From a virus (lineage: Duplodnaviria > Heunggongvirae > Uroviricota > Caudoviricetes): 13,938 nt of DNA. The stretch spans positions 64,001-77,938 of IMG/VR virus record IMGVR_UViG_2795385844_000002; one strand, 5' to 3'. The position numbers and the translations under genes were made by a program. The notes below the pieces were generated by a model. The model ran no database searches and was not told the DNA's origin. It saw only the letters and a program-made list of their open reading frames with translations. Below, one piece after another: positions 1 through 13,938 of this stretch. How positions within the stretch are numbered: position 1 is the stretch's first letter; each line of letters begins with the position of its first letter.

Positions 1-1
1 G

Positions 2-628
2 AGGTCCATCGCCCTGTGGCGCAGTATCTTTCGGAGCCTTCTGCGCAGGCGTCTTCTTGGTGTTTGACCCGCCCTCACTCAGGACGTCGAGTAGTTCTTG
101 TGCGTCGGCACGCATCGCATCTTCGTCATCTCCCGTGATACGGGAGGCGAATCGGACTGGAAGTCCAATCTCTTCGGCGATCTCACGCGCGAGATTGTTG
201 CGATCGGTAGATGCCTTGAATTCGCGGAGCTGCTGAAGCTCGTTTGCCAGAGCGGCCTTTTCAGTCTCCCAACGCTGCGCGTCGGTCTGACCAGCTGCCT
301 CAAACTGCTTGAGGCGCTCTACCTCTGCCTTTAGTGTATCACGCTCTGCGGTAAGGGGATCGAGCTTGTTCTTACGATCACGCGCAAGGCGGTCAGTGAC
401 CAGTTTGTTTCCCCACTCGGTAGCAGCTTCCTTGCTCTCGAAGCTCCACCAGTTGTTTGCCGCAGGAGGGGTGATATCCGCTCCGTCATTGCCGGAATCG
501 TCGCCTGCCCCAGCGTCATTCCCAGCATCCTCGGACCCGCCCATGATGGGCCAGATAGGGCCGCGCGAGGTGAAACCAATAGCCTTAAGGCCGGTGGTTG
601 GGTGAATGGGCATCAGTGATTCGCTCAC
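2..628 (-). CDS. Phage head scaffolding protein (partial, runs off the left edge)
   Basis: Not in the ORF track; translated by hand from GTG at 628: MSESLMPIHPTTGLKAIGFTSRGPIWPIMGGSEDAG...LKAEVERLKQFE...EIAEEIGLPVRFASRITGDDEDAMRADAQELL. It has an acidic N-terminus, a coiled-coil middle and a GLP..A.RI.G.DE..M.ADA..L motif typical of actinophage scaffolds. It sits directly after the portal and MuF genes. No stop codon before the window edge. Confidence 0.85.
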   Translation of the reverse strand, partial: MSESLMPIHPTTGLKAIGFTSRGPIWPIMGGSEDAGNDAGAGDDSGNDGADITPPAANNWWSFESKEAATEWGNKLVTDRLARDRKNKLDPLTAERDTLKAEVERLKQFEAAGQTDAQRWETEKAALANELQQLREFKASTDRNNLAREIAEEIGLPVRFASRITGDDEDAMRADAQELLDVLSEGGSNTKKTPAQKAPKDTAPQGDGP

Positions 629-679
629 TGCATTCTCTTCTCTCCGAACCGTTTTCGGTCGTTCGTGAAACCGTCCTGG

Positions 680-1801
680 CTACGCAGCCAGTTGCGAAAG
701 GCGCGTGTTCGCCCACTCCACCTGGGGAGAATTACGGCTGAATCCTGCGCCGAGGAGAGCTCGCGATCGGCTCTCAAGTTCTTTGCGCACCTTGCCTAGA
801 TCGGGTGTGGTGCGCTTGAAAGGGGTGTACTGCTCGCGGAACTTCGCGGCCTGGTCTTTGTTCGATAGCCAGTACCATTCGCGGGAAACCTTGTCCCACT
901 GATCGAAATAGAACTGAGCTTCTTCGTCGCGGATCGCTTCGTGCTTCTGTCCGAACGACTTCTCGCGCGCATAGACCGGACGCAACTGGCAGCGGCAGTG
1001 GTTGTGCACCTTGGCGACATTCGAGAAGCCTTCGGGCAACTCTGGTCCATCCTTCGGTGCGATGAAGTCCTGATCTCCCTTGGTTAGGGATCCGTTCCAA
1101 GGATTAGCTCGGCCACCCTTGAACGAACTCTTTCGGAAAACCGCTCCCCTACTTGCCAATAGGGCGCAGAACCAACAGGGGTTACCATCGGTCACGCGTG
1201 CATAGCCGATGATCTTGCGATCGGCGTACACCACGTTGCCCGTGACATTCCGGCCACCGTTCATCGCCTGACGGATCGCGGCACCCGAAGAGTTAGACAA
1301 CCCGCTGTACATCAGATCCTCTTGAGGACCCGGCATCGAAGCTTTGATCTCGTAGTTGCCGTTGATCACCAGTGATGTGGCGACATCCTTTTCAGGAAAG
1401 GGATCGAACTCAACCAGAGGCTGATGTTCCAGTGACACGGAAGGAATAAGGCTGTCTGAGAACCGCAATGGCGAGATGTTGCTCGGAACCTCCACGACCG
1501 GCACATCCATAGGCAGGAAGTCCTCAGTCGACAGTGTTGCGTTGCGGACGTCACTCGCGAACACAGCTGCGGCCCTCTGAGACTGCAGGTAGGCGGTCTT
1601 CACCAGCGGAAGCGCTGAGCTCACCCAGAGGGGCGTGGTCCTGTCGAGCTCATCGAATCGCTGAATCAGCCAGATTGGGTAGAGCTTCAAAGCCAGCCCT
1701 GCCGCGATGGCGTCCTGGTCCTCGCTGTGCTTCAGTGTGCGATAGGCGACGTATGCCTCAAGGGCCTTCAGTCCACTCCCCTGCTCCTGGGGCGCGGTCA
1801 C
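680..1801 (-). CDS. MuF-like head morphogenesis protein (often annotated as capsid maturation protease in actinophages)
   Basis: Motifs YARVTDGNPCWFCALLASRGAVF and VHNHCRCQLRPV (CxxC ... HxxCRC). Located between portal and scaffold. Its GTG start overlaps the portal stop (GTGA at 1801-1798). Confidence 0.8.
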   Translation of the reverse strand: MTAPQEQGSGLKALEAYVAYRTLKHSEDQDAIAAGLALKLYPIWLIQRFDELDRTTPLWVSSALPLVKTAYLQSQRAAAVFASDVRNATLSTEDFLPMDVPVVEVPSNISPLRFSDSLIPSVSLEHQPLVEFDPFPEKDVATSLVINGNYEIKASMPGPQEDLMYSGLSNSSGAAIRQAMNGGRNVTGNVVYADRKIIGYARVTDGNPCWFCALLASRGAVFRKSSFKGGRANPWNGSLTKGDQDFIAPKDGPELPEGFSNVAKVHNHCRCQLRPVYAREKSFGQKHEAIRDEEAQFYFDQWDKVSREWYWLSNKDQAAKFREQYTPFKRTTPDLGKVRKELESRSRALLGAGFSRNSPQVEWANTRLSQLAA

Positions 1802-3360
1802 TTACTAGCCATTCCCCGCGAGACGCCCGTCTTGTTGTTCAGCGGCCTCTGGTTGGTTGGGTTGTTGGGCCCACCGCCACCCGGGCCACCTGGGTTGGGC
1901 GCTGCCGGTGGAGGCTCTGGCTTGCCGGTCTTCGAATCCACGCCTACCGAAGTGGTGGTTACACCCACAACCTCGCGCAAGTACGTGGTGAGCGGATCGT
2001 CATCAAGAGCCTTCTTCTCCCAGGCCTCGACCTCGGTCTGCTCAACACCAGGGATGCGGTGCCATGCGGCGATCTTCGGAACTCCGAGCTGCGAGCAGAT
2101 CTTGCCCCACGCGTCAGCGAACTGAGCCAGCGAGCGAACCTCGACGTCCTGCCAGTGGACGCGTGCGAAAAAGTCAGAAGCATCCTCTTCACGGCCCTCA
2201 ATCAGGGCCGCGAGACGGAGCACCTGGGCGTGCGACTCACCCATAACTGTCTGCTTCTCGAACAGACGCTGGTAGGTCTGCTTACGAGCACCATCGAGTG
2301 CGTCAGCAGCCACATTCACGACCTGGCCGAGCAGGTTGGGTGGCAGCTGCATGACTGCCGCGAAAGTCTCTAGATCAGCCTTGTAGGCGGCAATAAAGCC
2401 GTCCATCGAGGTCTCATCCAGGGTGCCAAACCGGGCCTGCGCCTCCGAGGAGATGAGGATGTCCTCGTGCCCAATGCGGATCTTTGCCTCTTCGACCTCA
2501 TCCGAGGTATCCGGCTGCTCTAGACCGGTAGCCCAACGAACCTTGAAGCTGTTGAAGTGCTGAACCAGGAGGCGGTCGAACACCGTCTTGTCGATACGGG
2601 CCGCAAGATCAATTACCGACTCCACATCTCCCCAGCAGCGACCACGCAGGTCGATCTGGTTGACGTAGCGGACGAACGGTGGCGTGCCGTACTTGGTCTC
2701 CTCCAGCGTCCCTGCGCCGAACTTGCCCTTATCGAAAGTCAATGGGATGAAGTCACCATTGGGCAGCCACCAACGGTACTTGCCCTTCTGGGGAAGCTTC
2801 TCCAGAACGAACTGGGGGTACTCGTCAGCGTATGGATCGTCGTAAAGAGCGAAGCAATCCATAGGGTCGACGGCGCGCATGATCGCCATGACCTTGCTGG
2901 TCTCATCGACACCCTCGGTGACGCGAACGTAGGCGTATCCGTAGGTCATCACAGCGCGGTTCAGGGAGATCTGCTGCGCGGTCATCTTGTTGCGAACCCA
3001 GGACTTCCAGCCCTCAGAGTTCTCCGTCTCGCCTTCCTTGCGATAACCGTCAACGATCATCTGCTGGGCGAAGGTGGAGATCATCACCGGGATCCATGGA
3101 GTGCGAGCCATCCGCTGTAGCACCGCGCGCTCAGTGTTGCGCTTCAGTGGCCGCACAGACGGCTGCTTACCGGCACCCCAGGACTCAAGATGGGCAAGTC
3201 GGCCACGCTCGAGCTCGAATGCGGGAAACACCTTCTTGGTGATGAAAGTTTCCAGCGCCTTACCCGACAGCGAAGGATCTGGAAGATCGACTGGCGCAGG
3301 GCAGAATTCGGGTGCGTATACGTCTGACTGGTAGTAGACGTCGCTCTGGTAGACGCTCAC
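1798..3360 (-). CDS. Phage portal protein (SPP1 gp6-like)
   Basis: About 520 aa, directly after terL. Actinophage portal-like segments (ISTFAQQMIVDGYR, AVMTYGYAYVRV, LLVQHFNSFKVRWATG, ARFGTLDETSMDGF) and a Pro/Gly-rich tail. Start moved from the track's TTG 3363 to GTG 3360, which has GGAGG 6 nt upstream and a GTGA overlap with the terL stop. Confidence 0.9.
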   Translation of the reverse strand: MSVYQSDVYYQSDVYAPEFCPAPVDLPDPSLSGKALETFITKKVFPAFELERGRLAHLESWGAGKQPSVRPLKRNTERAVLQRMARTPWIPVMISTFAQQMIVDGYRKEGETENSEGWKSWVRNKMTAQQISLNRAVMTYGYAYVRVTEGVDETSKVMAIMRAVDPMDCFALYDDPYADEYPQFVLEKLPQKGKYRWWLPNGDFIPLTFDKGKFGAGTLEETKYGTPPFVRYVNQIDLRGRCWGDVESVIDLAARIDKTVFDRLLVQHFNSFKVRWATGLEQPDTSDEVEEAKIRIGHEDILISSEAQARFGTLDETSMDGFIAAYKADLETFAAVMQLPPNLLGQVVNVAADALDGARKQTYQRLFEKQTVMGESHAQVLRLAALIEGREEDASDFFARVHWQDVEVRSLAQFADAWGKICSQLGVPKIAAWHRIPGVEQTEVEAWEKKALDDDPLTTYLREVVGVTTTSVGVDSKTGKPEPPPAAPNPGGPGGGGPNNPTNQRPLNNKTGVSRGMASK

Positions 3361-4877
3361 CAAAGTCCTCCCCCACGAGGCTTACCCTCGTAGTGCTTCT
3401 TTTCGACAATCGCCTTGGAACGCAGCATGTTCAGTCCCCATAGGGCGTAGGAGATGGCGCAGACTCCGGTGATGTCGACAGTGGTATCGGCTCGGGACCA
3501 GCCCCAGCCGTTGTATTCGCCCTCGTCAATGGCGTTGCTGACTTTGCCGCCGAGGTTGTATTTGCGGGCCCCGGCCAGGCCGACAGTGATCGTGGGATCG
3601 CCAAGGTGGATAAGGGAGCCATCCTCAACCGAGTCGTAGAAGAACCCAGTCGCGGCAATAATCTCCTTAGTGCCGAACGGAATTACTTCGATACCAAGGG
3701 CTTCAAGCTCAGGAATCAGTGCACCCGCGCGTGCTCCTGACTGAATGCAAACAGCAAGTGGCGTCGGCGAATTCTTCGCCTTGTAGATCTGATCAATCAC
3801 CTCAACACACCAGGAGATGCCGCGCTCGCTCGACTCGACCTCAACCTGCTTCTTGCCGTCAGCTGTGTAGCCAGCCAGGCCGATCGTGGCATTAGAGCGA
3901 TCTGGTGCTGCATCAACAGCAAGGACGATGCGTGAAGTGATCTGGGAGACGCCAAGTTCGGAATGCTCGGAATGAACGAAACCGGCGCAGCGACAACGCG
4001 ACTTCCAGAGCTCAGCATCGATAGGAGACTTGATCGAGTTGTCGTGCCACAGGCCGAGGCGCTCACGGGCGAACTTCTTGTCGTCCATCGAGCCGCGCTC
4101 AACATTCGCAATCCACTCCTCGGTGAGGCGGATTCCCAACGCGGGGTTCGACTTGTACCACTGCTCGATGTCATCGAGCTTGCAGCCAGCATCCGCACAC
4201 CACTCGAAGAGGGCGATACGCGGATGGTGGTCCATACCACGCTCACGAGCCTTGACAAGGACCGCTGAGTCCTCGTTACCCGTAGACGAGGTGTAGATAA
4301 CCTGGGGGTTCTTACGCGCTGACAGTGCGGGGATCAATGCCGCGACCATGTCAGGATCGAGGTCGTATGCCTCATCTAGCACAACTAGATCGCCCGAGAA
4401 GCCTCGGCCCTGACCTGTACCGCGAGCCTTATAGAGCAGGCGCGCACCGTTATTCAGGATGATGCCAACCTTGCCGTTGGCGGAAGGCTTCGATCGAACG
4501 TACTTATCGAGGGCAGGACATCCCTCGATGATGTCCACCATGCGCAGGTACGACTCGTAGGCCGTATCAAAGAGGTGGGCGGTGTGGATGATCAGGCGTG
4601 TTCCGAATAGGAACAGGTGGACGATCTCCAGTGCTTCGGTGATCGCCGTCTTGCCATTTTGTCGCGGAATGAGCAAAACCGCCTCTAGCGCAGCCCACTT
4701 GCGATCCTCACGTTCGCCTAGAAGGTCACGAAGGATCAACTGCTGCCACGGATCCAAGTGGTATCCAATGGCATTCAGGAATGCGATAGCTTTGTCGCCG
4801 CGTGATCGGACATACTCTGGAACCCAGTAGTTGGGTGGAATCTGGTCACCAACGCGGACTTCACCAGTTGCAACCAC
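3357..4877 (-). CDS. terL: Terminase large subunit
   Basis: Walker A LIPRQNGKT, Walker B LVVLDEA, coupling motif YTSST, RNase H-like nuclease start LAVDAAPDRS; 506 aa; upstream of the portal gene. Confidence 0.95.
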   Translation of the reverse strand: MVATGEVRVGDQIPPNYWVPEYVRSRGDKAIAFLNAIGYHLDPWQQLILRDLLGEREDRKWAALEAVLLIPRQNGKTAITEALEIVHLFLFGTRLIIHTAHLFDTAYESYLRMVDIIEGCPALDKYVRSKPSANGKVGIILNNGARLLYKARGTGQGRGFSGDLVVLDEAYDLDPDMVAALIPALSARKNPQVIYTSSTGNEDSAVLVKARERGMDHHPRIALFEWCADAGCKLDDIEQWYKSNPALGIRLTEEWIANVERGSMDDKKFARERLGLWHDNSIKSPIDAELWKSRCRCAGFVHSEHSELGVSQITSRIVLAVDAAPDRSNATIGLAGYTADGKKQVEVESSERGISWCVEVIDQIYKAKNSPTPLAVCIQSGARAGALIPELEALGIEVIPFGTKEIIAATGFFYDSVEDGSLIHLGDPTITVGLAGARKYNLGGKVSNAIDEGEYNGWGWSRADTTVDITGVCAISYALWGLNMLRSKAIVEKKHYEGKPRGGGLW

Positions 4878-4906
4878 TGAGGGCCCAACCGTCCTTGTCT
4901 ACATAC

Positions 4907-5293
4907 TCAGTCCGGTAAAGCGAACTCCGCCATCATCTTTGCGATGGGGTCGTCAACTTCTCCCGAATTAGCCTCGGAATTTCCGAGTTTCAGTTGCGCC
5001 AACAGCTGACGCAGAGCGAGCCGCTGCTGGCGAATCTCACCCAGAAGGGGATTCACGACAATCTTGATTTCAACAGCATCAGGCGCTGTGTATTCAGCAT
5101 CCTCAGCCAGGCGGATCCACTCCGACGAGCCTGAGGCCAATGCCCCACTGAGTCGTTCAATGATGTCAGCGGTACGGCATGCCTCACCGAGAAGGACGTA
5201 TCCAGCTGGATCTAGTGTTGACCCTGCTGTAACGCCGTCCCATAGATGCTTACCCCAGTCCTTGAGCCCCTTGGGCTGCTGTGGTTCGGGCAT
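4907..5293 (-). CDS. terS: Terminase small subunit
   Basis: G..LW..V...LL.EACR.AD..ERL ... NPLL.EIRQQR..L..LL pattern typical of actinophage small terminases. Immediately upstream of terL, with AGGAAG 7 nt before the ATG. Confidence 0.8.
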   Translation of the reverse strand: MPEPQQPKGLKDWGKHLWDGVTAGSTLDPAGYVLLGEACRTADIIERLSGALASGSSEWIRLAEDAEYTAPDAVEIKIVVNPLLGEIRQQRLALRQLLAQLKLGNSEANSGEVDDPIAKMMAEFALPD

Positions 5294-5543
5294 CGCGAAT
5301 CTTCCTGTACCAGGACCAATGCGCGTCCTGTGCGTATTCCCAGGCCTTGATGTAGGTCCGCAAGCGATAGTTGGGCTGACGGTTTCCGTCCGCGCAAAGT
5401 GCTGCGTCCTGCGCCTGTAGGTCGAGGTAGTGGTTTAGCTCGGCTACGTCATTTCGGATGAGTGCACGAACATCTTCAAGCGTCAGATCGCTCCACAAAG
5501 GCTTTGTTGCCTTGTCATCGAAGCTAATTGACGGAGCGATCAC
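5250..5543 (-). CDS. Hypothetical protein (97 aa), first gene of the packaging operon
   Basis: Perfect Shine-Dalgarno AGGAGGT 7 nt upstream of GTG 5543; predicted helical; overlaps terS by 44 nt; no family recognised. Confidence 0.7.
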   Translation of the reverse strand: MIAPSISFDDKATKPLWSDLTLEDVRALIRNDVAELNHYLDLQAQDAALCADGNRQPNYRLRTYIKAWEYAQDAHWSWYRKIRDARTTAAQGAQGLG

Positions 5544-8836: not shown

Positions 8837-8894
8837 GCAGCTGGACGGGTAAGGACACAAATCGGGGGTGAGTTATGTATCGCCGCCCAGCTGC
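8837..8894. terminator. Inverted repeat at the convergent junction; possible terminator or RNA structure
   Basis: GCAGCTGGACGG (8837-8848) pairs with CCGCCCAGCTGC (8883-8894) at 11 of 12 positions. The loop is 34 nt and only GTTTC follows, so it is not a canonical terminator. Confidence 0.3.
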
Positions 8895-8909
8895 GTTTCG
8901 ATCGTACAG

Positions 8910-9242
8910 CTACTGACTCTTGTCGGCGGGCTTAGCGTCCACGTCCACATCGAAGTAAATCCCCCGGTCGTCCAGCGAGGTCACCGTGGTTGTCACTCCC
9001 CATAGGACACCTTCACGGTCGGTGATCCAGCACCGCTGCGTAGCGCCCTTCTCCCCACTTAAAGATCCGTCGCACCTAGTCGAGGTAGGCCACACGCTGG
9101 TCTTGTGGCGAAGAGTGTCCGAAACCCTATCCGCCAGACGGAATCTGTCGATACTCCGGTCGCGGCCGAAATGAATGCTCCCCGAACAACCAGTGAGCAC
9201 GACAGTGCCAGCCACCAACACCGACCCGACTATCGTCTTCAC
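8910..9242 (-). CDS. DUF4333-like lipoprotein (110 aa)
   Basis: Signal peptide with an LTGC lipobox; C.G.L.GE.GATQ.C motif; GTGA coupling to the upstream paralogue. Confidence 0.75.
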   Translation of the reverse strand: MKTIVGSVLVAGTVVLTGCSGSIHFGRDRSIDRFRLADRVSDTLRHKTSVWPTSTRCDGSLSGEKGATQRCWITDREGVLWGVTTTVTSLDDRGIYFDVDVDAKPADKSQ

Positions 9243-9595
9243 GACGGCAAGTTGGACGTCTGCGTTGGAGCGTAGTTGAACTTGATGTTGCCGTCCCCGT
9301 TGACCGACTTCGTTGTTACCAATACGTCGTAGTGGACGCCTTCGTCGTCAATGATCTTGCACTTCTGGGTTGCGCCCACCTCGCCTTTAAGCGGCCCTTC
9401 GCAACCCACGCTCTGCAAGACGTAGCCCTGCTTCTCTTTAACCGCGTCCGCGAGGGCCTTCTCTAGTCCCGCCTGTGTAAGCTGAGGGGCCTGGTTGGTC
9501 TGCTCTTTGTCGGAGTTTGAGAAGAACCTCACCTGGCAACCCGAAAGGGTTACAGCCAGGAGTGCGGCACCAATTGCCAAGCTATTCTTCATCAT
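9239..9595 (-). CDS. DUF4333-like lipoprotein (118 aa)
   Basis: Signal peptide with an LSGC lipobox; LE..L...V.....V.CEGPLKGEVGATQKC...YDVLVT..SV.G.I.F pattern typical of DUF4333. Confidence 0.75.
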   Translation of the reverse strand: MMKNSLAIGAALLAVTLSGCQVRFFSNSDKEQTNQAPQLTQAGLEKALADAVKEKQGYVLQSVGCEGPLKGEVGATQKCKIIDDEGVHYDVLVTTKSVNGDGNIKFNYAPTQTSNLPS

Positions 9596-9659
9596 TCACC
9601 ACTTCCAAGGTTCTCAGGAATGTCCCAAACTCGGGTTTCAGAGCGAGAGGGGGGACCTC

Positions 9660-10058
9660 CTACTCACCCGTGCGATCATCGATGCGCTTAGCGTCTTCGC
9701 GGTATTGGGGTGGTACGTAGAACAGTTCAGGCGGAATTTCACGTCCCGAGGCAGTATCGTAGATACTTGTCTTCTTTCCTTCCCGGACTATTTCAAGGTC
9801 GGACCCGACCGGAAAGTCATAGATAAAGATTAATGCAGGTTCTATATAGCAGACATCGTTGTAAGCCACAATCTGCCAATTACTCTTATCATTTAAGTAC
9901 TCACTAGTATCAATTTCGCTAATTATCTGCCAGCCATTGTCTGCGCCGCCCGTAGATGGAACACGCACCATCCATCGCACCTTGCCTCGACGTTCCATCA
10001 CATTAGTTGTCGCCAGGCATGCGCCGGAATGCGGGATAAACTCTTTGTATTCGCCCAT
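9660..10058 (-). CDS. DUF2185/Imm33-like immunity protein (132 aa)
   Basis: CLAT..V......V.WMVR......DNGW..IS..DT.EY.ND..NW.....N.V..IEP......D.P.G matches the DUF2185 pattern; lies in the toxin operon, 6 nt after the ankyrin gene. Confidence 0.75.
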   Translation of the reverse strand: MGEYKEFIPHSGACLATTNVMERRGKVRWMVRVPSTGGADNGWQIISEIDTSEYLNDKSNWQIVAYNDVCYIEPALIFIYDFPVGSDLEIVREGKKTSIYDTASGREIPPELFYVPPQYREDAKRIDDRTGE

Positions 10059-10064
10059 TGGGAT

Positions 10065-10586
10065 TCAATTCTTGGCGTGTGCGGATTCATATGCCTGAAC
10101 TCGCTCACGCAGCATGGGTAGATTCCACGCAGAGTTGAAGATCAGGTCACGCAGATAGGGGTAAGTCAGATTTAGGTTCGGCTGGTCGAATATCACATCG
10201 TAAAAAGGGGCGCATACACTTTCAGGCGAGGGCCCATGCTCTATCAGCACTGCCAGCGGAGGGCCGGAACGCGTGGAGAACAGGTTTATGTCCGCGCCGC
10301 TTTCAATCAAGCGTCGCAGCATCGGAGCTTCATACGCTGGGTCGTGCTTACGTTGGTCAAACAGCACGTGTAAGACATTCACGTTATCGGGGGCAATCGA
10401 GGGATCCGCGCCGTCATCAAGCAGCCTTGTCGTGATAGCCACCCGTGCTTCAACATCTCGATTGGCCACGGATGAAAACAGCAGCGTGCGGCCCCCGCCA
10501 TCAACGAAAGAGGCATCATTGGGCGTGTACTCTCTCAAGAAGTCCTCGTAAGAACCCCGTTTGGCGACGGTGATCAGGCTGGCCAT
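10065..10586 (-). CDS. Ankyrin-repeat protein, probable cognate immunity protein (173 aa)
   Basis: Ankyrin-like units GRTLLFSSVAN...RLLDDGADPS, NVLHVLF...RRLIESGADIN and GPPLAVLI; first gene after the toxin (22-nt gap). Confidence 0.8.
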   Translation of the reverse strand: MASLITVAKRGSYEDFLREYTPNDASFVDGGGRTLLFSSVANRDVEARVAITTRLLDDGADPSIAPDNVNVLHVLFDQRKHDPAYEAPMLRRLIESGADINLFSTRSGPPLAVLIEHGPSPESVCAPFYDVIFDQPNLNLTYPYLRDLIFNSAWNLPMLRERVQAYESAHAKN

Positions 10587-10596
10587 GTTGACATCA

Positions 10597-10625
10597 ATCT
10601 TATACTAATCATCGGTGCTCATCAA
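10597..10625 (-). promoter_or_regulatory. Candidate internal sigma-A-type promoter for the immunity genes
   Basis: TTGATG (10625-10620), a 17-nt spacer, then TAAGAT (10602-10597), 10 nt before the ankyrin ATG, which has no Shine-Dalgarno. Confidence 0.4.
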
Positions 10626-12474
10626 TATGTGACCGATTTCTGTAAGGGTCTTGTACCCGATAGTTTTCGGGGTCTCGGTATTCGTCAATGAAATCTCGGA
10701 ATGTTATTAGGCCGTCGTGGTACTGGTCTCGCAGTTTTGCATACTCATTACCGCCAACGTGTCCCATGTCCCATAGACCAGTTCGAGAATCCCCCTCCCG
10801 CCATTCAATTAGTCGGTGTCCGTTCTCAATGATCCAGTCGTCCCCGATTGGACCATTAGGGTGCAAACGTACCCATTGTTGATCTGGGCCGGGTTCTGGT
10901 AGGGCTAGTTTTCCACTCTGTATATCTACTATTTGCTCTTCGCGCGAGAGACTCCATACATCTATTAATTGATTCGCACCGTAGTCGGGCCTGCTGCCGT
11001 TTAGGTACTTGAGTGGATTGCCTTCCATGTCGAGCCTCGGCCCATCAGCGTCATGGGTTACCGATGAGTGGTCAGCACCTGCTGGTGCCGGATGATCCGA
11101 CACGGGGGCGTGGGTTGTGCTGTTTGGGGGTTCGACACTATGCGGGGTGGGTGGGTGCCCTGGCGCAGCGTCTTCGAGTCCGTGGGTGAGGGCGCGGCCT
11201 TCGGTGCCGAGTAGTGCGCCTTCGCCACCCACGGGTGCTGTTGCGATGCCTGCGGCGATTTCTATGCCGTGTTTGCCGATGAAGGCTTTGGGGTTGTCGA
11301 TGCCGGATTTGACCTCATCGATAGCGCCCTTAGCTTGGTCTATGCCACGTTCGACCTGGTGGACGGGATCGGGGTTGACCACATCCCACAGCCCTTTAGC
11401 GACGCCCTTCCACGCCTCTTTCGCGTGGTCTCCACCGTTGATACCCAGCAGGTCATCCTTGGCGCGGCCAGCTTGATCCCACGATTCGGCGAAGGCCTCG
11501 CCACCGGATTGCCGATGCGGCGTTGGGTTGCCCTCTGGGGCCTTCGGTGGTGGTAGCTGCTTGTTGGGGTCAAAGTTCTTGGCCCGATTGATGATGTCTT
11601 CGACCTCGGCAGGCGTGCGGCCCGGAGACAGGATGACACGCATCTTGTCGATCGCGGCCTTACCTTCGGGGCTGTTTGGATCGAGCTTCTGCACCGATGG
11701 CGGCCCGTATACCGGAGCATTCGGGTCTACGGGCGCGGCAACAGGTTTGGTGAGGCCGGGGTTGTTGATGTGTTCCAGCTTGTCAGCGAGCGTCCCGGCA
11801 CCGGGATCGATAGAGGCTGGATCGGTCTTCTTGGCGTACCAGTCCTTGTAGAAGTTCGCGGGCTGGGCAGTCGGATCAGCGGGTGTCGGCTGCGCCACGG
11901 CGTCGCGCAGAATCTTGCGGCCATCGACTAGGGCGGTTTTGGGGTTGACGCAGCCGGTGATCTTCTGGGCCGCCGCGTCGGCCTGGGCCTTGAGTGTTTG
12001 ACAGCCCTGCTCCCACTTGGCGACATACTCTTTGATCTGGCGCTCAATGTCAGCGACATGTTCGCGGTTGCGGGCTATCGAGTCATCGCTTTCACCCTCG
12101 GCTGGGTGGTATTCCACGTGGTATTGCTGGTCGATCGAGACACCCCGATCCTTGTGCTCTAGCACCCTCTCGATGAGACGTTGGCCGTTGACTAGGGGAT
12201 CAACCACCTCGTATTCGATGGTGGCGGCAACAAGCTTGCCTGCATCTTCGGCGGTGTCGTTGGTGTTATCAGAGCTGTGACAGTCGGTGGATGCCGTGTC
12301 ATAAGCTGCGTTCGAGGTGCGCCCGGTCCATTCCGTGCCATTTGGAGCCCCGACCCACCGTTTGTACTCGTCAAAGACATCCTTGAACTGCCCGGCCTCC
12401 GGGTGCCAGGTATCCACCACCGCCATATAGTCATTGGCCTTCTTGGCCATGAACTCATCAAGCGGCGTCAACAC
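10609..12474 (-). CDS. WXG100-like type VII-secreted polymorphic toxin with a C-terminal GH-E (HNH/EndoVII superfamily) nuclease domain (621 aa)
   Basis: N-terminal helical region with W49-T-G51. Pro-rich linkers. The C-terminus WDMGHVGGNEY...GLITFRDFIDEY.DPENYR.QDP..NRSH..E matches the GH-E nuclease pattern (as in Bacillus subtilis YqcG). Followed by immunity-type genes. Confidence 0.88.
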   Translation of the reverse strand: MLTPLDEFMAKKANDYMAVVDTWHPEAGQFKDVFDEYKRWVGAPNGTEWTGRTSNAAYDTASTDCHSSDNTNDTAEDAGKLVAATIEYEVVDPLVNGQRLIERVLEHKDRGVSIDQQYHVEYHPAEGESDDSIARNREHVADIERQIKEYVAKWEQGCQTLKAQADAAAQKITGCVNPKTALVDGRKILRDAVAQPTPADPTAQPANFYKDWYAKKTDPASIDPGAGTLADKLEHINNPGLTKPVAAPVDPNAPVYGPPSVQKLDPNSPEGKAAIDKMRVILSPGRTPAEVEDIINRAKNFDPNKQLPPPKAPEGNPTPHRQSGGEAFAESWDQAGRAKDDLLGINGGDHAKEAWKGVAKGLWDVVNPDPVHQVERGIDQAKGAIDEVKSGIDNPKAFIGKHGIEIAAGIATAPVGGEGALLGTEGRALTHGLEDAAPGHPPTPHSVEPPNSTTHAPVSDHPAPAGADHSSVTHDADGPRLDMEGNPLKYLNGSRPDYGANQLIDVWSLSREEQIVDIQSGKLALPEPGPDQQWVRLHPNGPIGDDWIIENGHRLIEWREGDSRTGLWDMGHVGGNEYAKLRDQYHDGLITFRDFIDEYRDPENYRVQDPYRNRSHIDEHR

Positions 12475-12482
12475 CAGTGTCC

Positions 12483-12803
12483 CTATGCCCGCTTCGGGGA
12501 CTGATAGATGCTGGGCAGGTTACGCAAACCGGCCTCCAGCCCACCGGTACTGACCGCCAGGGCATGCTGAGCCTCGTCGGAGAAATCTGCGATCGTGTTC
12601 AACCGCGCAGCGCCGATCCGCTTGACATCCGCAATAGCCTTGGACACCCCATACAGCGCCGCCAACCCCGGATCAGCACCAGCCGGGGTCGCAACACTAG
12701 CCGCCGTGCTCCGTGTGAGCTGATCAGCCAGCGTCCGCAGATGCGGACCGAGCTTGCCCAACGCCGCAAGATCAACCTTGAGAACGTTCTCGTCACCTGC
12801 CAT
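12483..12803 (-). CDS. Small helical ESX/WXG100-like partner protein (106 aa)
   Basis: About 100 aa, Ala/Leu-rich, with an N-terminal LKVDLAALGKL typical of ESX-substrate partners; 8 nt upstream of the toxin. No literal WxG or YxxxD/E motif. Confidence 0.7.
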   Translation of the reverse strand: MAGDENVLKVDLAALGKLGPHLRTLADQLTRSTAASVATPAGADPGLAALYGVSKAIADVKRIGAARLNTIADFSDEAQHALAVSTGGLEAGLRNLPSIYQSPKRA

Positions 12804-12866
12804 CGTCGGCCTTGATCACCCCCACCCTCCTGACTTAGGTGACCATCATCACCCAGATTGTTACGC

Positions 12867-12875
12867 AGACTAGCA
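12867..12875 (-). promoter_or_regulatory. Candidate extended -10 promoter (TGCTAGTCT) for the toxin cassette
   Basis: Matches TGnTAnnnT, 64 nt upstream of the partner gene ATG, in the divergent intergenic region. Confidence 0.4.
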
Positions 12876-13002
12876 CTACAAGGGCAGTAGGGAAGCCTTG
12901 CGGGAGAAGGTTGTTACACGACAAGCAGGCTAATAATCAAGATACTGTCGAATTTGTTATCTCTAAGTGCACGATGCGAGACCTGGGATACCGTACGGCG
13001 TT

Positions 13003-13305
13003 ATGAAGATCTTGATCGCAGCGTGTGCCGCATTTCTGGCGTTCGCACCAACTGCCACAGCGCAGCCAGACGCGGCGGGCGACGAGGACTTCGCATCGAT
13101 CATGGACTACTCGCACATCAGTCGGATCGGCCCGACGTATCTCTACTCCAAGCAGGCCAAGGAGATCTGCTACGAGTACAAGAACGGGTGGAGCACTTTG
13201 TCGGTCAGCAATGTCGTTGAAGTGAATCACCCTGAGTGGAACCGGGACACCGTCAGCCGCTTCATCAAGATCTCCATGGCTAGCTGGTGCCCCGAACTCC
13301 TATAA
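13003..13305 (+). CDS. DUF732-like secreted protein (100 aa)
   Basis: Signal peptide MKILIAACAAFLAFAPTATA-Q; D..F...M....I ... A..IC.....G.S...V ... W....V..FI..S..SWCP pattern with two Cys residues. Confidence 0.75.
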   Translation: MKILIAACAAFLAFAPTATAQPDAAGDEDFASIMDYSHISRIGPTYLYSKQAKEICYEYKNGWSTLSVSNVVEVNHPEWNRDTVSRFIKISMASWCPELL

Positions 13306-13306
13306 G

Positions 13307-13345
13307 TAGACCGCCTACACAGCGACGAGGTACCCTCAGGTCATG
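13307..13345 (+). promoter_or_regulatory. Candidate leaderless promoter for the 13343 gene
   Basis: TAGACC (13307-13312), an 18-nt spacer, TACCCT (13331-13336), then exactly 6 nt to ATG 13343. Confidence 0.4.
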
Positions 13346-13705
13346 GCTGCATCGCCAATTGAAATATTGATCATCCGACAGGATGAGTCCTACCAAATAG
13401 ATAAAGTCCCCAACGACATCAAACGCCTCAGCCATCTTGTTGGCGGTCACCTACAGGCTAAGAACACCCCTACTGCGACCTTCTGGTTTAACAGCCACAG
13501 CAAGCGCGAAAAATTACCGGTCAACCACGCGGCCACCTACTTGTGGTGGAAATTAGACCCGGCTTCTGAATCTCGAGACACAATCAACGGCCCGTGTGTC
13601 GTTACTGGCCCAGCAAACGACGTCCAGGAAGCCACCGATATTTACCCAGATGTGCTAGATCTTCACACGACCATCGACCTGGTGCGTGAGGAAGTACGCC
13701 CCTAG
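13343..13705 (+). CDS. DUF3846-like protein (120 aa)
   Basis: L..LVGG.LQ ... FW.N...K...LPVN..AT..W......D.INGPCVVTG matches the DUF3846 pattern. Confidence 0.65.
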   Translation: MAASPIEILIIRQDESYQIDKVPNDIKRLSHLVGGHLQAKNTPTATFWFNSHSKREKLPVNHAATYLWWKLDPASESRDTINGPCVVTGPANDVQEATDIYPDVLDLHTTIDLVREEVRP

Positions 13706-13938
13706 CGCAAACCCAGCTCGTGTAGCAGGGCTACCTCGTCATTGAATGGGGTGGCCCTTTGTTTTCGGCGCTCGAGCACTACACACTCCCCCTTCACACC
13801 GACGCTGTAGCGCTGGTAGCGACGTACAGGGGTATCCAGTGGCTCACCCTTGCGCCAGCGACGGTAATGGGTCATGCACATATCGCGGACGACCGTCTTC
13901 CGGCCACAGTCTTTATTGGGCCCGTGCAAACAGGGCAT
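13702..13938 (-). CDS. Small Cys/His (putative Zn-binding) protein; the 5' end may extend beyond the window
   Basis: C...C.R.....D.C.THYRRWRKG resembles the Zn-binding N-terminal module found on actinophage HNH-type proteins, but no nuclease domain follows. The ATG is at the last bases of the window. Confidence 0.5.
   Translation of the reverse strand: MPCLHGPNKDCGRKTVVRDMCMTHYRRWRKGEPLDTPVRRYQRYSVGVKGECVVLERRKQRATPFNDEVALLHELGLR

Follow-up and report, generated by a model that had tools for sequence, protein, structure and literature searches.

A GH-E-tipped PEST1-type toxin module with two candidate immunity genes in a cluster MabI prophage of Mycobacterium abscessus

Six adjacent genes at the end of a prophage raise two questions: how many of them form one toxin system, and which of them protect the cell that makes the toxin? 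The DNA examined (the window, 13,938 nt) is the final 13.9 kb of a 77.9-kb IMG/VR provirus record (IMGVR_UViG_2795385844_000002, positions 64,001 to 77,938). An earlier note on this DNA had read the six genes as a single phage-borne type VII toxin cassette. They are co-oriented open reading frames (ORFs) on the minus strand, encoding a candidate small secretion partner (106 aa, 12483-12803), a polymorphic toxin with a GH-E tip (621 aa, 10609-12474; matching PF14410), an ankyrin-repeat protein (173 aa, 10065-10586; recognized by its predicted structure), an Imm33/DUF2185 protein (132 aa, 9660-10058; matching PF09951) and the DUF4333 lipoproteins A (118 aa, 9239-9595) and B (110 aa, 8910-9242; both matching PF14230). 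The positions given previously were correct, as were the gaps of 8, 22, 6 and 64 nt and the 4-nt overlap (GTGA) of the final two genes, and because each gene has many homologues in the same order elsewhere, all six are taken to be real. We consider it likely that a promoter of the phage backbone serves a swapped-in, promoterless PEST1 module that encodes two immunity proteins, and that the DUF4333 pair lies outside the toxin system.

Based on nucleotide identity and gene order, the window phage is assigned to cluster MabI (cluster-M-like, Mclasvirinae) of the M. abscessus prophages, with the window probably covering its attL-proximal end. Nucleotide identity to prophiT49-2 and prophi86-1 is 97%, over 64-66% of the window, and that to prophiGD54-2 is 87%; all three are cluster MabI, cluster-M-like M. 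abscessus prophages with a toxin cassette near attL (PMC8092301, PMC9934374). Scaffold, protease, portal and large and small terminase genes are found at window positions 1-5300, and the order terminase, portal, protease, scaffold is common to the window and the MabI members. By synteny with prophi86-1, the cassette starts approximately 2.4 kb from attL, and the IMG/VR record stops approximately 1.3 kb before the junction. As the toxin of the window is also recorded on a 1.06-Mb contig, the phage is considered to be integrated. The MabI identity and the PEST1 homology of both toxin and partner agree with the previous description of a PEST-type cassette on an M. abscessus prophage.

An exchanged module in a MabI backbone

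The extent of the toxin system was determined by comparison with prophi86-1. BLAST homology to this prophage covers window positions 8837-9640 (95% identity) and 12823-13938 (93%), with none between, and the gap (9641-12822) holds exactly the first four genes. These breakpoints delimit an exchanged four-gene PEST1 module on the minus strand. At the same place, prophi86-1 carries a different WXG gene, a gene for a 478-aa toxin and a gene for an LpqN-like lipoprotein, followed by the same DUF4333 pair: the genes for lipoproteins A and B are 95% identical at the nucleotide level to prophi86-1 genes 8 and 9, respectively. The proposal of a single six-gene cassette was thus not upheld; what has been exchanged is four genes, and the DUF4333 pair follows a different toxin in prophi86-1.

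The same conclusion is reached from the distribution of DUF4333 genes. In prophiT49-2, prophiGD54-2 and a further MabI-type provirus (L028), one or two of these genes stand directly behind the cassette, whatever its toxin, and such genes are found in this position in all five MabI prophages examined. Conversely, in at least 10 other mycobacterial proviruses or genomic elements that carry the GH-E toxin tip with its ankyrin and Imm33 genes, no DUF4333 gene occurs within 5-6 kb. From this distribution, the DUF4333 pair is lineage-specific MabI backbone and appears not to be part of the GH-E toxin system. A role for these proteins as GH-E-specific immunity was considered and rejected, as the same pair follows other toxins. 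The earlier identification of tandem DUF4333 lipoproteins is itself sound: both match PF14230 above the cut-off of 27 bits (A: 32.8 bits, E-value 8e-8; B: 42.1 bits, E-value 1e-10), and both have a lipobox (LSGC in A and LTGC in B, read by eye) after a hydrophobic N-terminus. The two proteins are paralogues with 32% identity. Both also match the C-terminal half of NCBIfam NF052486, an "anti-apoptotic protein" of mycobacteria (E-values 1e-8 and 4e-12). Membership in this family was rejected because the scores are 35-46 bits against a cut-off of 250, and only a domain is shared.

The position of the upstream breakpoint bears on how the module may be expressed. This breakpoint is only 19 nt before the start codon of the first gene, and the incoming module is therefore promoterless. 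The upstream control region (12804-12966, minus strand), which the cassette has in common with a divergent DUF732 gene, consists of backbone sequence (12823-13938 is 92.7% identical to prophi86-1), and its blocks are kept in five MabI prophages despite their different cassettes. These blocks include an extended -10-like sequence, TGCTAGTCT, at 12875-12867 (assigned by eye), a palindrome, GGTGATGATGGTCACC, at 12853-12838 and a GGAGGG box at 12830-12825. A consensus scan of the window returned no minus-strand promoter or terminator. We infer from the conserved blocks that a resident promoter lies in this region; the incoming module probably uses it, and the lipoprotein genes behind the module would continue to belong to one transcription unit with it. 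A candidate end of the transcription unit is a hairpin with a 12-bp stem identified by folding at 8837-8894 (minus strand), which starts 16 nt past the last stop codon (-39.9 kcal/mol for a 126-nt stretch, z -2.1); it has no U-tract and was not called by the terminator scan. In the 64-nt gap before the lipoprotein genes, the predicted hairpin was no better than those of shuffled sequences (z -0.64).

Two further features of the upstream region were observed. The palindrome is a perfect 6+6 repeat, GGTGAT-GATG-GTCACC (window 12838-12853), located between the putative -10 and the ribosome-binding box. Its GGTGA(N6)TCAC core is retained in five of five MabI prophages with differing cassettes, and it may be an operator or a hairpin of the 5' untranslated region. 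In addition, a GTG codon at 12819, 5 nt past the GGAGGG box, starts an 8-codon mini-ORF whose TGA stop (12795-12793) is inside the first gene; the annotated ATG of that gene (12803) is 21 nt from the box. L028 is arranged alike. The mini-ORF (12793-12819) may represent translational coupling that arose from the cassette swap.

Exchange has also occurred within the toxin gene. L005, a prophage of a different type, matches window positions 11856-9679 at 89.7% nucleotide identity, a block covering the toxin linker, tip, ankyrin and Imm33 and ending at the Imm33 stop codon, while the N-terminal domain of its toxin differs (23% identity). The toxin gene itself is therefore recombinant, and the tip, ankyrin and Imm33 move as one piece. 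This trio is carried by several other provirus types (L005, L026, L027 and L029-L034). The possibility that the GH-E cassette is unique to the window phage was rejected, as the MabI-type L028 has a 74-87% similar cassette in the same place. Cassette exchange between prophage clusters has been published previously (PMC9934374, PMC10654092).

The GH-E toxin, its two candidate immunity proteins and its partner

The toxin has an N-terminal WXG-type domain (with W40-V-G and W49-T-G), a linker extending to approximately residue 480 and a tip from approximately residue 481 to 621. The GH-E domain named in the earlier note is well supported, with PF14410 matching residues 562-616 above its gathering threshold (E-value 1.4e-16, 61.3 bits against a cut-off of 25). 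Residues 1-480 are 66% identical to the toxin of prophiGD43A-5, whose tip is Ntox15, and the previously proposed tip boundary near residue 480 coincides with the end of this homology. The N-terminal part is also related to the PEST1 representative, prophiGD43A-6 gp91 (39% identity over 500 aa, E-value 5e-78), and the toxin has no significant similarity to the representatives of PEST2 (GD05-2) or PEST3 (GD17-1). A search with residues 470-621 found 67 homologues, mostly from Mycobacteroides and Mycolicibacterium and annotated as GH-E or HNH/ENDO VII nucleases, all of which carry PF14410; a sequence search of the PDB found no relative of the tip. In an alignment of 20 homologues, G571, H572, N613, H616, D618 and E619 are invariant, and H572, the residue that the earlier note had chosen for a control mutation (H572A), is the invariant histidine of the GH motif. 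Glu577 is present in the window tip and is replaced by lysine in some relatives. The database gene call for the toxin begins 8 codons later (613 aa), and the GTG start used here agrees with the GenBank annotation of relatives.

Two side observations concern the tip. The conserved toxin module reaches approximately 70 residues upstream of the Pfam GH-E model (residues ~482-560, window 10795-11031), with D482, G485, N492, R495-P496, Q502, W507, R511 and Q514 invariant; a Streptococcus suis tip described below lacks this extension. M. abscessus proteins P0017 (an alpha/beta hydrolase DUF1023 protein according to its NCBI name) and P0030 have the same GH-E tip on other N-terminal parts, and the tip has therefore also been spliced onto non-PEST1 leaders.

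The two genes that follow the toxin encode unrelated immunity-type proteins, in line with the earlier note's proposal of two candidate immunity genes. The ankyrin protein scores below threshold with Pfam hidden Markov models (HMMs; Ank_4, 19.4 bits against 22.7; Ank, 13.7 bits against 21.1), but the fold was confirmed by structure prediction: an AlphaFold2 (AF2) model built with 20 homologues has a predicted local distance difference test score (pLDDT) of 94.7 and a predicted TM-score (pTM) of 0.90. The best Foldseek match is the uncharacterized 3t8k (TM 0.77), followed by dozens of ankyrin-repeat proteins (with RFXANK, ANKRA2 and DARPins at TM 0.6-0.7), among which are the ankyrin-type immunity proteins 9cys_I and 5cea. 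PDB sequence matches are to designed ankyrins, with E-values as low as 5e-7. The protein is also 36% identical (E-value 2e-30) to the product of the sole gene downstream of a distant GH-E toxin. The DUF2185 assignment of the next gene was borne out by a PF09951 match above the gathering threshold (E-value 4.8e-18, 65.2 bits against a cut-off of 25.4), and the Atlas structure of this Imm33 protein has a TM of 0.86 to Imm33 clusters; a PDB sequence search with it returned nothing meaningful. It is 67% identical to an Imm33 that stands alone behind a GH-E toxin in L012. As read from the sequence, neither protein has a signal peptide.

The association of both genes with the GH-E tip extends well beyond this phage. 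Loci were gathered from genomes, viral contigs, metagenomes and exact-protein look-ups and scanned by tblastn and HMMs for the three parts; a scan of genome contigs with a single tip sequence gave no match, and an alignment-based scan gave matches. The tip, ankyrin and Imm33 occur in this order with short gaps in 21 distinct loci. Among these are all of the mycobacterial loci, three contigs from metagenomes, and loci of Gordonia (tip 47-51% identical) and of Pseudactinotalea and Canibacter (35-41%). The sole match among 50,697 GenBank phage records, S. suis element OP662532, has the same trio order. Loci with a single partner were found in Propionibacteriaceae-like DNA: many tips are followed by ankyrin only, often in tandem toxin-ankyrin-toxin-ankyrin arrays (L018, L047, L054), and others are followed by Imm33 only (L012, L050-52, L055). 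Furthermore, one 326-aa protein (P0072, L042:5001-5981) fuses Ank (residues 2-173) to Imm33 (219-325) in a toxin-less locus, a single instance from one assembled run. Given the recurrence of the trio and the existence of single-partner loci, each protein behaves as an immunity partner that suffices on its own for the GH-E clade. These distributions suggest that ankyrin and Imm33 are genuine immunity partners of the tip, and that mycobacteria keep both.

The two candidates differ in their rate of divergence. Mean pairwise identity is 68% for Imm33, 56% for the tip and 58% for the ankyrin protein, and minimum pairwise identity is 53% for Imm33 as opposed to 37% for the tip and 33% for the ankyrin protein. 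The ankyrin protein is probably a fast-evolving, variant-specific inhibitor of the GH-E tip and Imm33 probably a slower-evolving second inhibitor. The presence of Imm33 also follows one residue of the tip. The residue is the fifth past the histidine of the GH motif and corresponds to Glu577 of the window toxin. Among tips with glutamate here, Imm33 is present in 24 of 27, and among those with lysine it is absent from 14 of 17. The residue is glutamate in all Imm33-only loci and lysine in nearly all ankyrin-only tips. This comparison set the tips of L010, L018, L045-49 and L053-57 against those of L012, L050-55 and the trio loci; because the tips are related, the counts are non-independent events and the pattern is suggestive. 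A speculative explanation, to which we give little weight, is that the pair acts as a specialist and a generalist guard: the ankyrin protein would neutralize only its own toxin variant, while Imm33 would bind the catalytic face, which is conserved and includes Glu577, and would thereby protect broadly against the GH-E toxins of rival strains. Lysine variants would then have escaped Imm33, which would subsequently have been lost.

The first gene of the module, 8 nt upstream of the toxin gene, corresponds in its 106-aa product to the small WXG100/ESAT-6-like effector of PEST cassettes. The product is 83% identical to prophiGD43A-5 gp112 and 55% identical (E-value 2.6e-33) to the product of the WXG gene of the PEST1 representative prophiGD43A-6, and its homologues are annotated "WXG motif protein". 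To this extent the earlier label of a WXG100-type partner stands, but the literal motif does not: the protein contains no tryptophan and has no Pfam or NCBIfam match at an E-value ≤ 0.1, including WXG100 (PF06013). Its Atlas feature neighbours are EspC, ESX-1-associated and PE clusters (score 0.92), which we treat as a lead only. We regard the protein as a candidate helical secretion partner of the ESAT-6/EspC/PE-like kind.

Proposed mechanism and alternative explanations

If the locus is as described above, cassette exchange would have placed the four-gene module between the conserved promoter region and the DUF4333 pair, and this pair would probably be co-transcribed with whatever cassette sits upstream. 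The partner and toxin would pair through their helical domains and leave the cell by the host ESX (type VII) system. The GH-E His-Me-finger tip would cut DNA, and the cytoplasmic ankyrin and Imm33 proteins would hold the toxin inactive in the producer before export, and in kin. The DNase activity, ESX export, binding of the ankyrin or Imm33 protein to the toxin, co-transcription and biological role in this scheme are all predicted, whereas the gene structure, the domains, the ankyrin fold, the limits of the exchange and the conserved trio were observed directly in the analysis. As previously noted, no ESX machinery is seen in the window; M. abscessus possesses ESX-3 and ESX-4 (PMC10654092, PMC8092301). 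The immunity gene of a PEST cassette corresponds here to two genes, ankyrin and Imm33, which co-occur with the tip in the 21 loci and are predicted to protect. PEST toxins kill M. smegmatis, which can be transformed with them only when the imm gene is included, and some loci encoding a polymorphic toxin and its immunity protein (PT-Imm) are expressed in lysogens (PMC10654092, PMC8092301). Tox-GH-E has been described as an HNH/EndoVII-fold domain and predicted to occur with WXG type VII secretion leaders in Actinobacteria and with Imm-ank, and Imm33 has been predicted to confer immunity to other HNH-fold toxins (PMC3482391). In Bacillus subtilis, the skin element, which derives from a phage, encodes the LXG toxin YqcG, which degrades the chromosome in vivo and is used in strain competition (PMC4436073, PMC8321402).

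Several points weigh against this scheme. The small partner carries no W-x-G motif, no YxxxD/E motif and no WXG100 HMM match. No mycobacterial ESX system is known to deliver a toxin into another bacterium. An unrecognized terminator or promoter could be present in the 64 nt ahead of the lipoprotein genes. The AF2 model of the tip (residues 472-621, 20-sequence alignment) is poor, with a pLDDT of 57, and for this reason the predicted His-Me fold is taken from the Pfam match. The substrate of GH-E is likewise uncertain because one earlier report found that the isolated C-terminal domain of YqcG acted as an RNase in E. coli (cited in PMC4436073, PMC8321402). Finally, although both partners co-vary with the tip in a mirror-tree comparison (Mantel r 0.88 and 0.80), this does not separate the two immunity candidates. 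The partial r values for the whole set are 0.70 and 0.45, but among close relatives their ranking is inverted, and both are raised by common descent. Shared ancestry dominates the Mantel test, which gives no answer as to which partner is cognate.

It is on this last matter that an alternative presents itself, namely that only one of the two downstream proteins is cognate, and that the locus is a small poly-immunity locus in which the second protein is an orphan directed against the GH-E or other HNH-fold toxins of rivals and not against the toxin of the phage itself. Orphan immunity genes frequently build up in polymorphic toxin loci, and poly-immunity proteins often contain Imm33 or Imm-ank (PMC3482391). 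Imm33 is found fused to SUFU, Imm68 or a second Imm33, a toxin-less Ank-Imm33 gene exists, and the ankyrin of L028 is 87% identical to that of the window but its Imm33 only 67%, which suggests separate histories. An orphan would be expected to be lost or shuffled, yet the trio keeps its order in the 21 loci, at tip identities down to 35-40% and in two phyla, and Imm33 can be the only gene directly behind a GH-E tip (L012, L050-52, L055). We consider an orphan rather unlikely. Far less probable, in our judgement, is that all six genes constitute one toxin system in which the DUF4333 proteins serve as accessory or immunity proteins, for example in envelope release or in blocking re-entry. The six genes do share a strand, with short gaps and the GTGA overlap and with no predicted terminator before 8910, and LpqN-like lipoproteins are proposed immunity proteins in other MabI cassettes (PMC8092301). 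Against this, the same pair, at 95% identity, follows the different toxin of prophi86-1, and DUF4333 genes stand behind every MabI cassette examined but are absent near the trio in eleven or more other mycobacterial elements and all of the non-mycobacterial loci. A nuclease that acts in the cytoplasm, moreover, needs no extracytoplasmic inhibitor.

A different objection concerns the target of the toxin rather than the composition of the locus. The cassette may not be an interbacterial weapon; it could act on infected eukaryotic cells, as CpnT/TNT does, or form an abortive-infection or phage-defence module. The producer needs a cytoplasmic immunity protein whatever the final target, and this feature does not decide the target because CpnT/TNT of M. 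tuberculosis also has one. The cassettes are, furthermore, lysogen-expressed beside att sites, as are many defence genes. The authors who defined PEST cassettes describe their role as unknown and list virulence, competition and viral (phage) defence as options, with no direct support for any (PMC10654092). Against these readings, YqcG, the closest characterized GH-E-type toxin from a phage element, mediates strain competition in B. subtilis (PMC8321402). The tandem toxin-immunity arrays and the immunity genes that lack a toxin are typical marks of conflict among related bacteria, and the conserved secretion partner and WXG domain argue against a purely intracellular role. A target other than competing bacteria is thus judged somewhat improbable, and we retain a four-gene module with two immunity proteins as the preferred explanation.

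Relation to known systems and significance

The closest characterized relatives of the module are the PEST1 cassettes prophiGD43A-6 gp90-92 and prophiGD43A-5 gp110-112 (Dedrick 2021, PMC8092301; mSystems 2023, PMC10654092). Like the window cassette, these are prophage-borne mosaics made by recombination, in which a small WXG-type gene precedes a toxin with a homologous N-terminal domain and linker, and immunity is encoded downstream; they lie near an att junction, as the window cassette probably does judging by synteny. They differ in having Ntox15 or other domains in place of a GH-E tip and one immunity gene in place of two unrelated immunity-type genes, and the window cassette is placed by synteny at attL of a MabI phage, not attR. 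The loci of prophi86-1 (genes 5-9), prophiT49-2 and prophiGD54-2 share the lineage, position, upstream region and DUF4333 gene(s) of the window. The module of these MabI sisters, however, consists of a WXG gene, a 478-497-aa toxin (with an unknown or AvrE-like tip) and an LpqN-like lipoprotein, in contrast to the PEST1 partner, GH-E toxin, ankyrin and Imm33 found here. Between the cassette and the prophage end, the plus strand of the window encodes DUF732 (12967-13305) and DUF3846 (13343-13705) proteins, and both genes are kept in prophi86-1 and prophiT49-2. The DUF732 protein has a signal-peptide-like hydrophobic N-terminus (read by eye), and its gene is divergent from the cassette promoter region.

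More distant parallels are found in Bacillota. YqcG-YqcF of B. subtilis is likewise a type VII-secreted polymorphic toxin system on a phage-derived element, with YqcG assigned to the GH-E type through the name that UniRef gives to a PF14410-only homologue. Its leader is of the LXG (T7SSb) kind and its single antitoxin is YqcF, with no ankyrin and Imm33 pair mentioned in the papers, whereas the window has a WXG/ESX leader and such a pair. S. suis OP662532 ("phage YS34-rum") encodes the three domains of the window in order and with short gaps (GH-E, E-value 1e-13; Ank_2, 1e-9; Imm33, 1.5e-13) in genes annotated as hypothetical, and its ankyrin homologue passes the Pfam threshold, which that of the window does not. 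Its 277-aa toxin lacks a WXG domain and is located behind an RHS-repeat/EndoU toxin as an apparent alternative tip. Over its 91 kb, OP662532.1 (L041, locus 73077-78065) has only 34 annotated features; it also contains a 9.4-kb ORF and an orphan-like GH-E/ankyrin/Imm33 set. In appearance it is closer to an integrative element that carries a polymorphic-toxin locus than to a typical phage. In the purely computational survey of Zhang et al. 2012 (PMC3482391), Tox-GH-E is paired with Imm-ank or Imm-SuFu and Imm33 with Tox-HNH, Tox-DHNNK and NGO1392-like toxins; it describes neither Imm33 with GH-E nor a fixed ankyrin and Imm33 pair.

Much of this locus is therefore of a known kind, as the earlier note had stated of the cassette class. 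PEST cassettes, their three superfamilies, the attL position in MabI, cassette exchange, GH-E with WXG leaders and Imm-ank with GH-E are already known, and the trio proteins are present and automatically annotated in many public genomes. The note's further statement that the extended GH-E form had not been characterized agrees with the text and examined supplements of PMC8092301 and PMC10654092, in which GH-E, ankyrin, Imm33 and DUF4333 are unnamed. No published description was found of a GH-E-tipped PEST cassette, a fixed ankyrin and Imm33 pair behind GH-E, natural single-partner variants or DUF4333 genes as MabI backbone, and the only account of Imm33 in the searchable literature is the 2012 computational survey (PMC3482391).

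Of the genes that M. abscessus prophages express in lysogens, PEST cassettes are some of the most common. Recognition of the DUF4333 lipoproteins as backbone prevents their mis-assignment as toxin accessories. The biochemistry of the tip is easily assayed as DNA cleavage, and the cassette is thus well suited to finding out whether an antibacterial nuclease is exported by the ESX systems of mycobacteria. In addition, across Actinomycetota and in one Streptococcus, a single toxin domain is linked to two immunity proteins of unrelated structure. If the specialist and generalist arrangement proves true, it would define a two-tier immunity architecture for a polymorphic toxin, and Imm33 would receive its first assigned function. 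Natural loci that keep only one partner offer a direct route to learning why a toxin would need two inhibitors, and to the first experimental function of Imm33.

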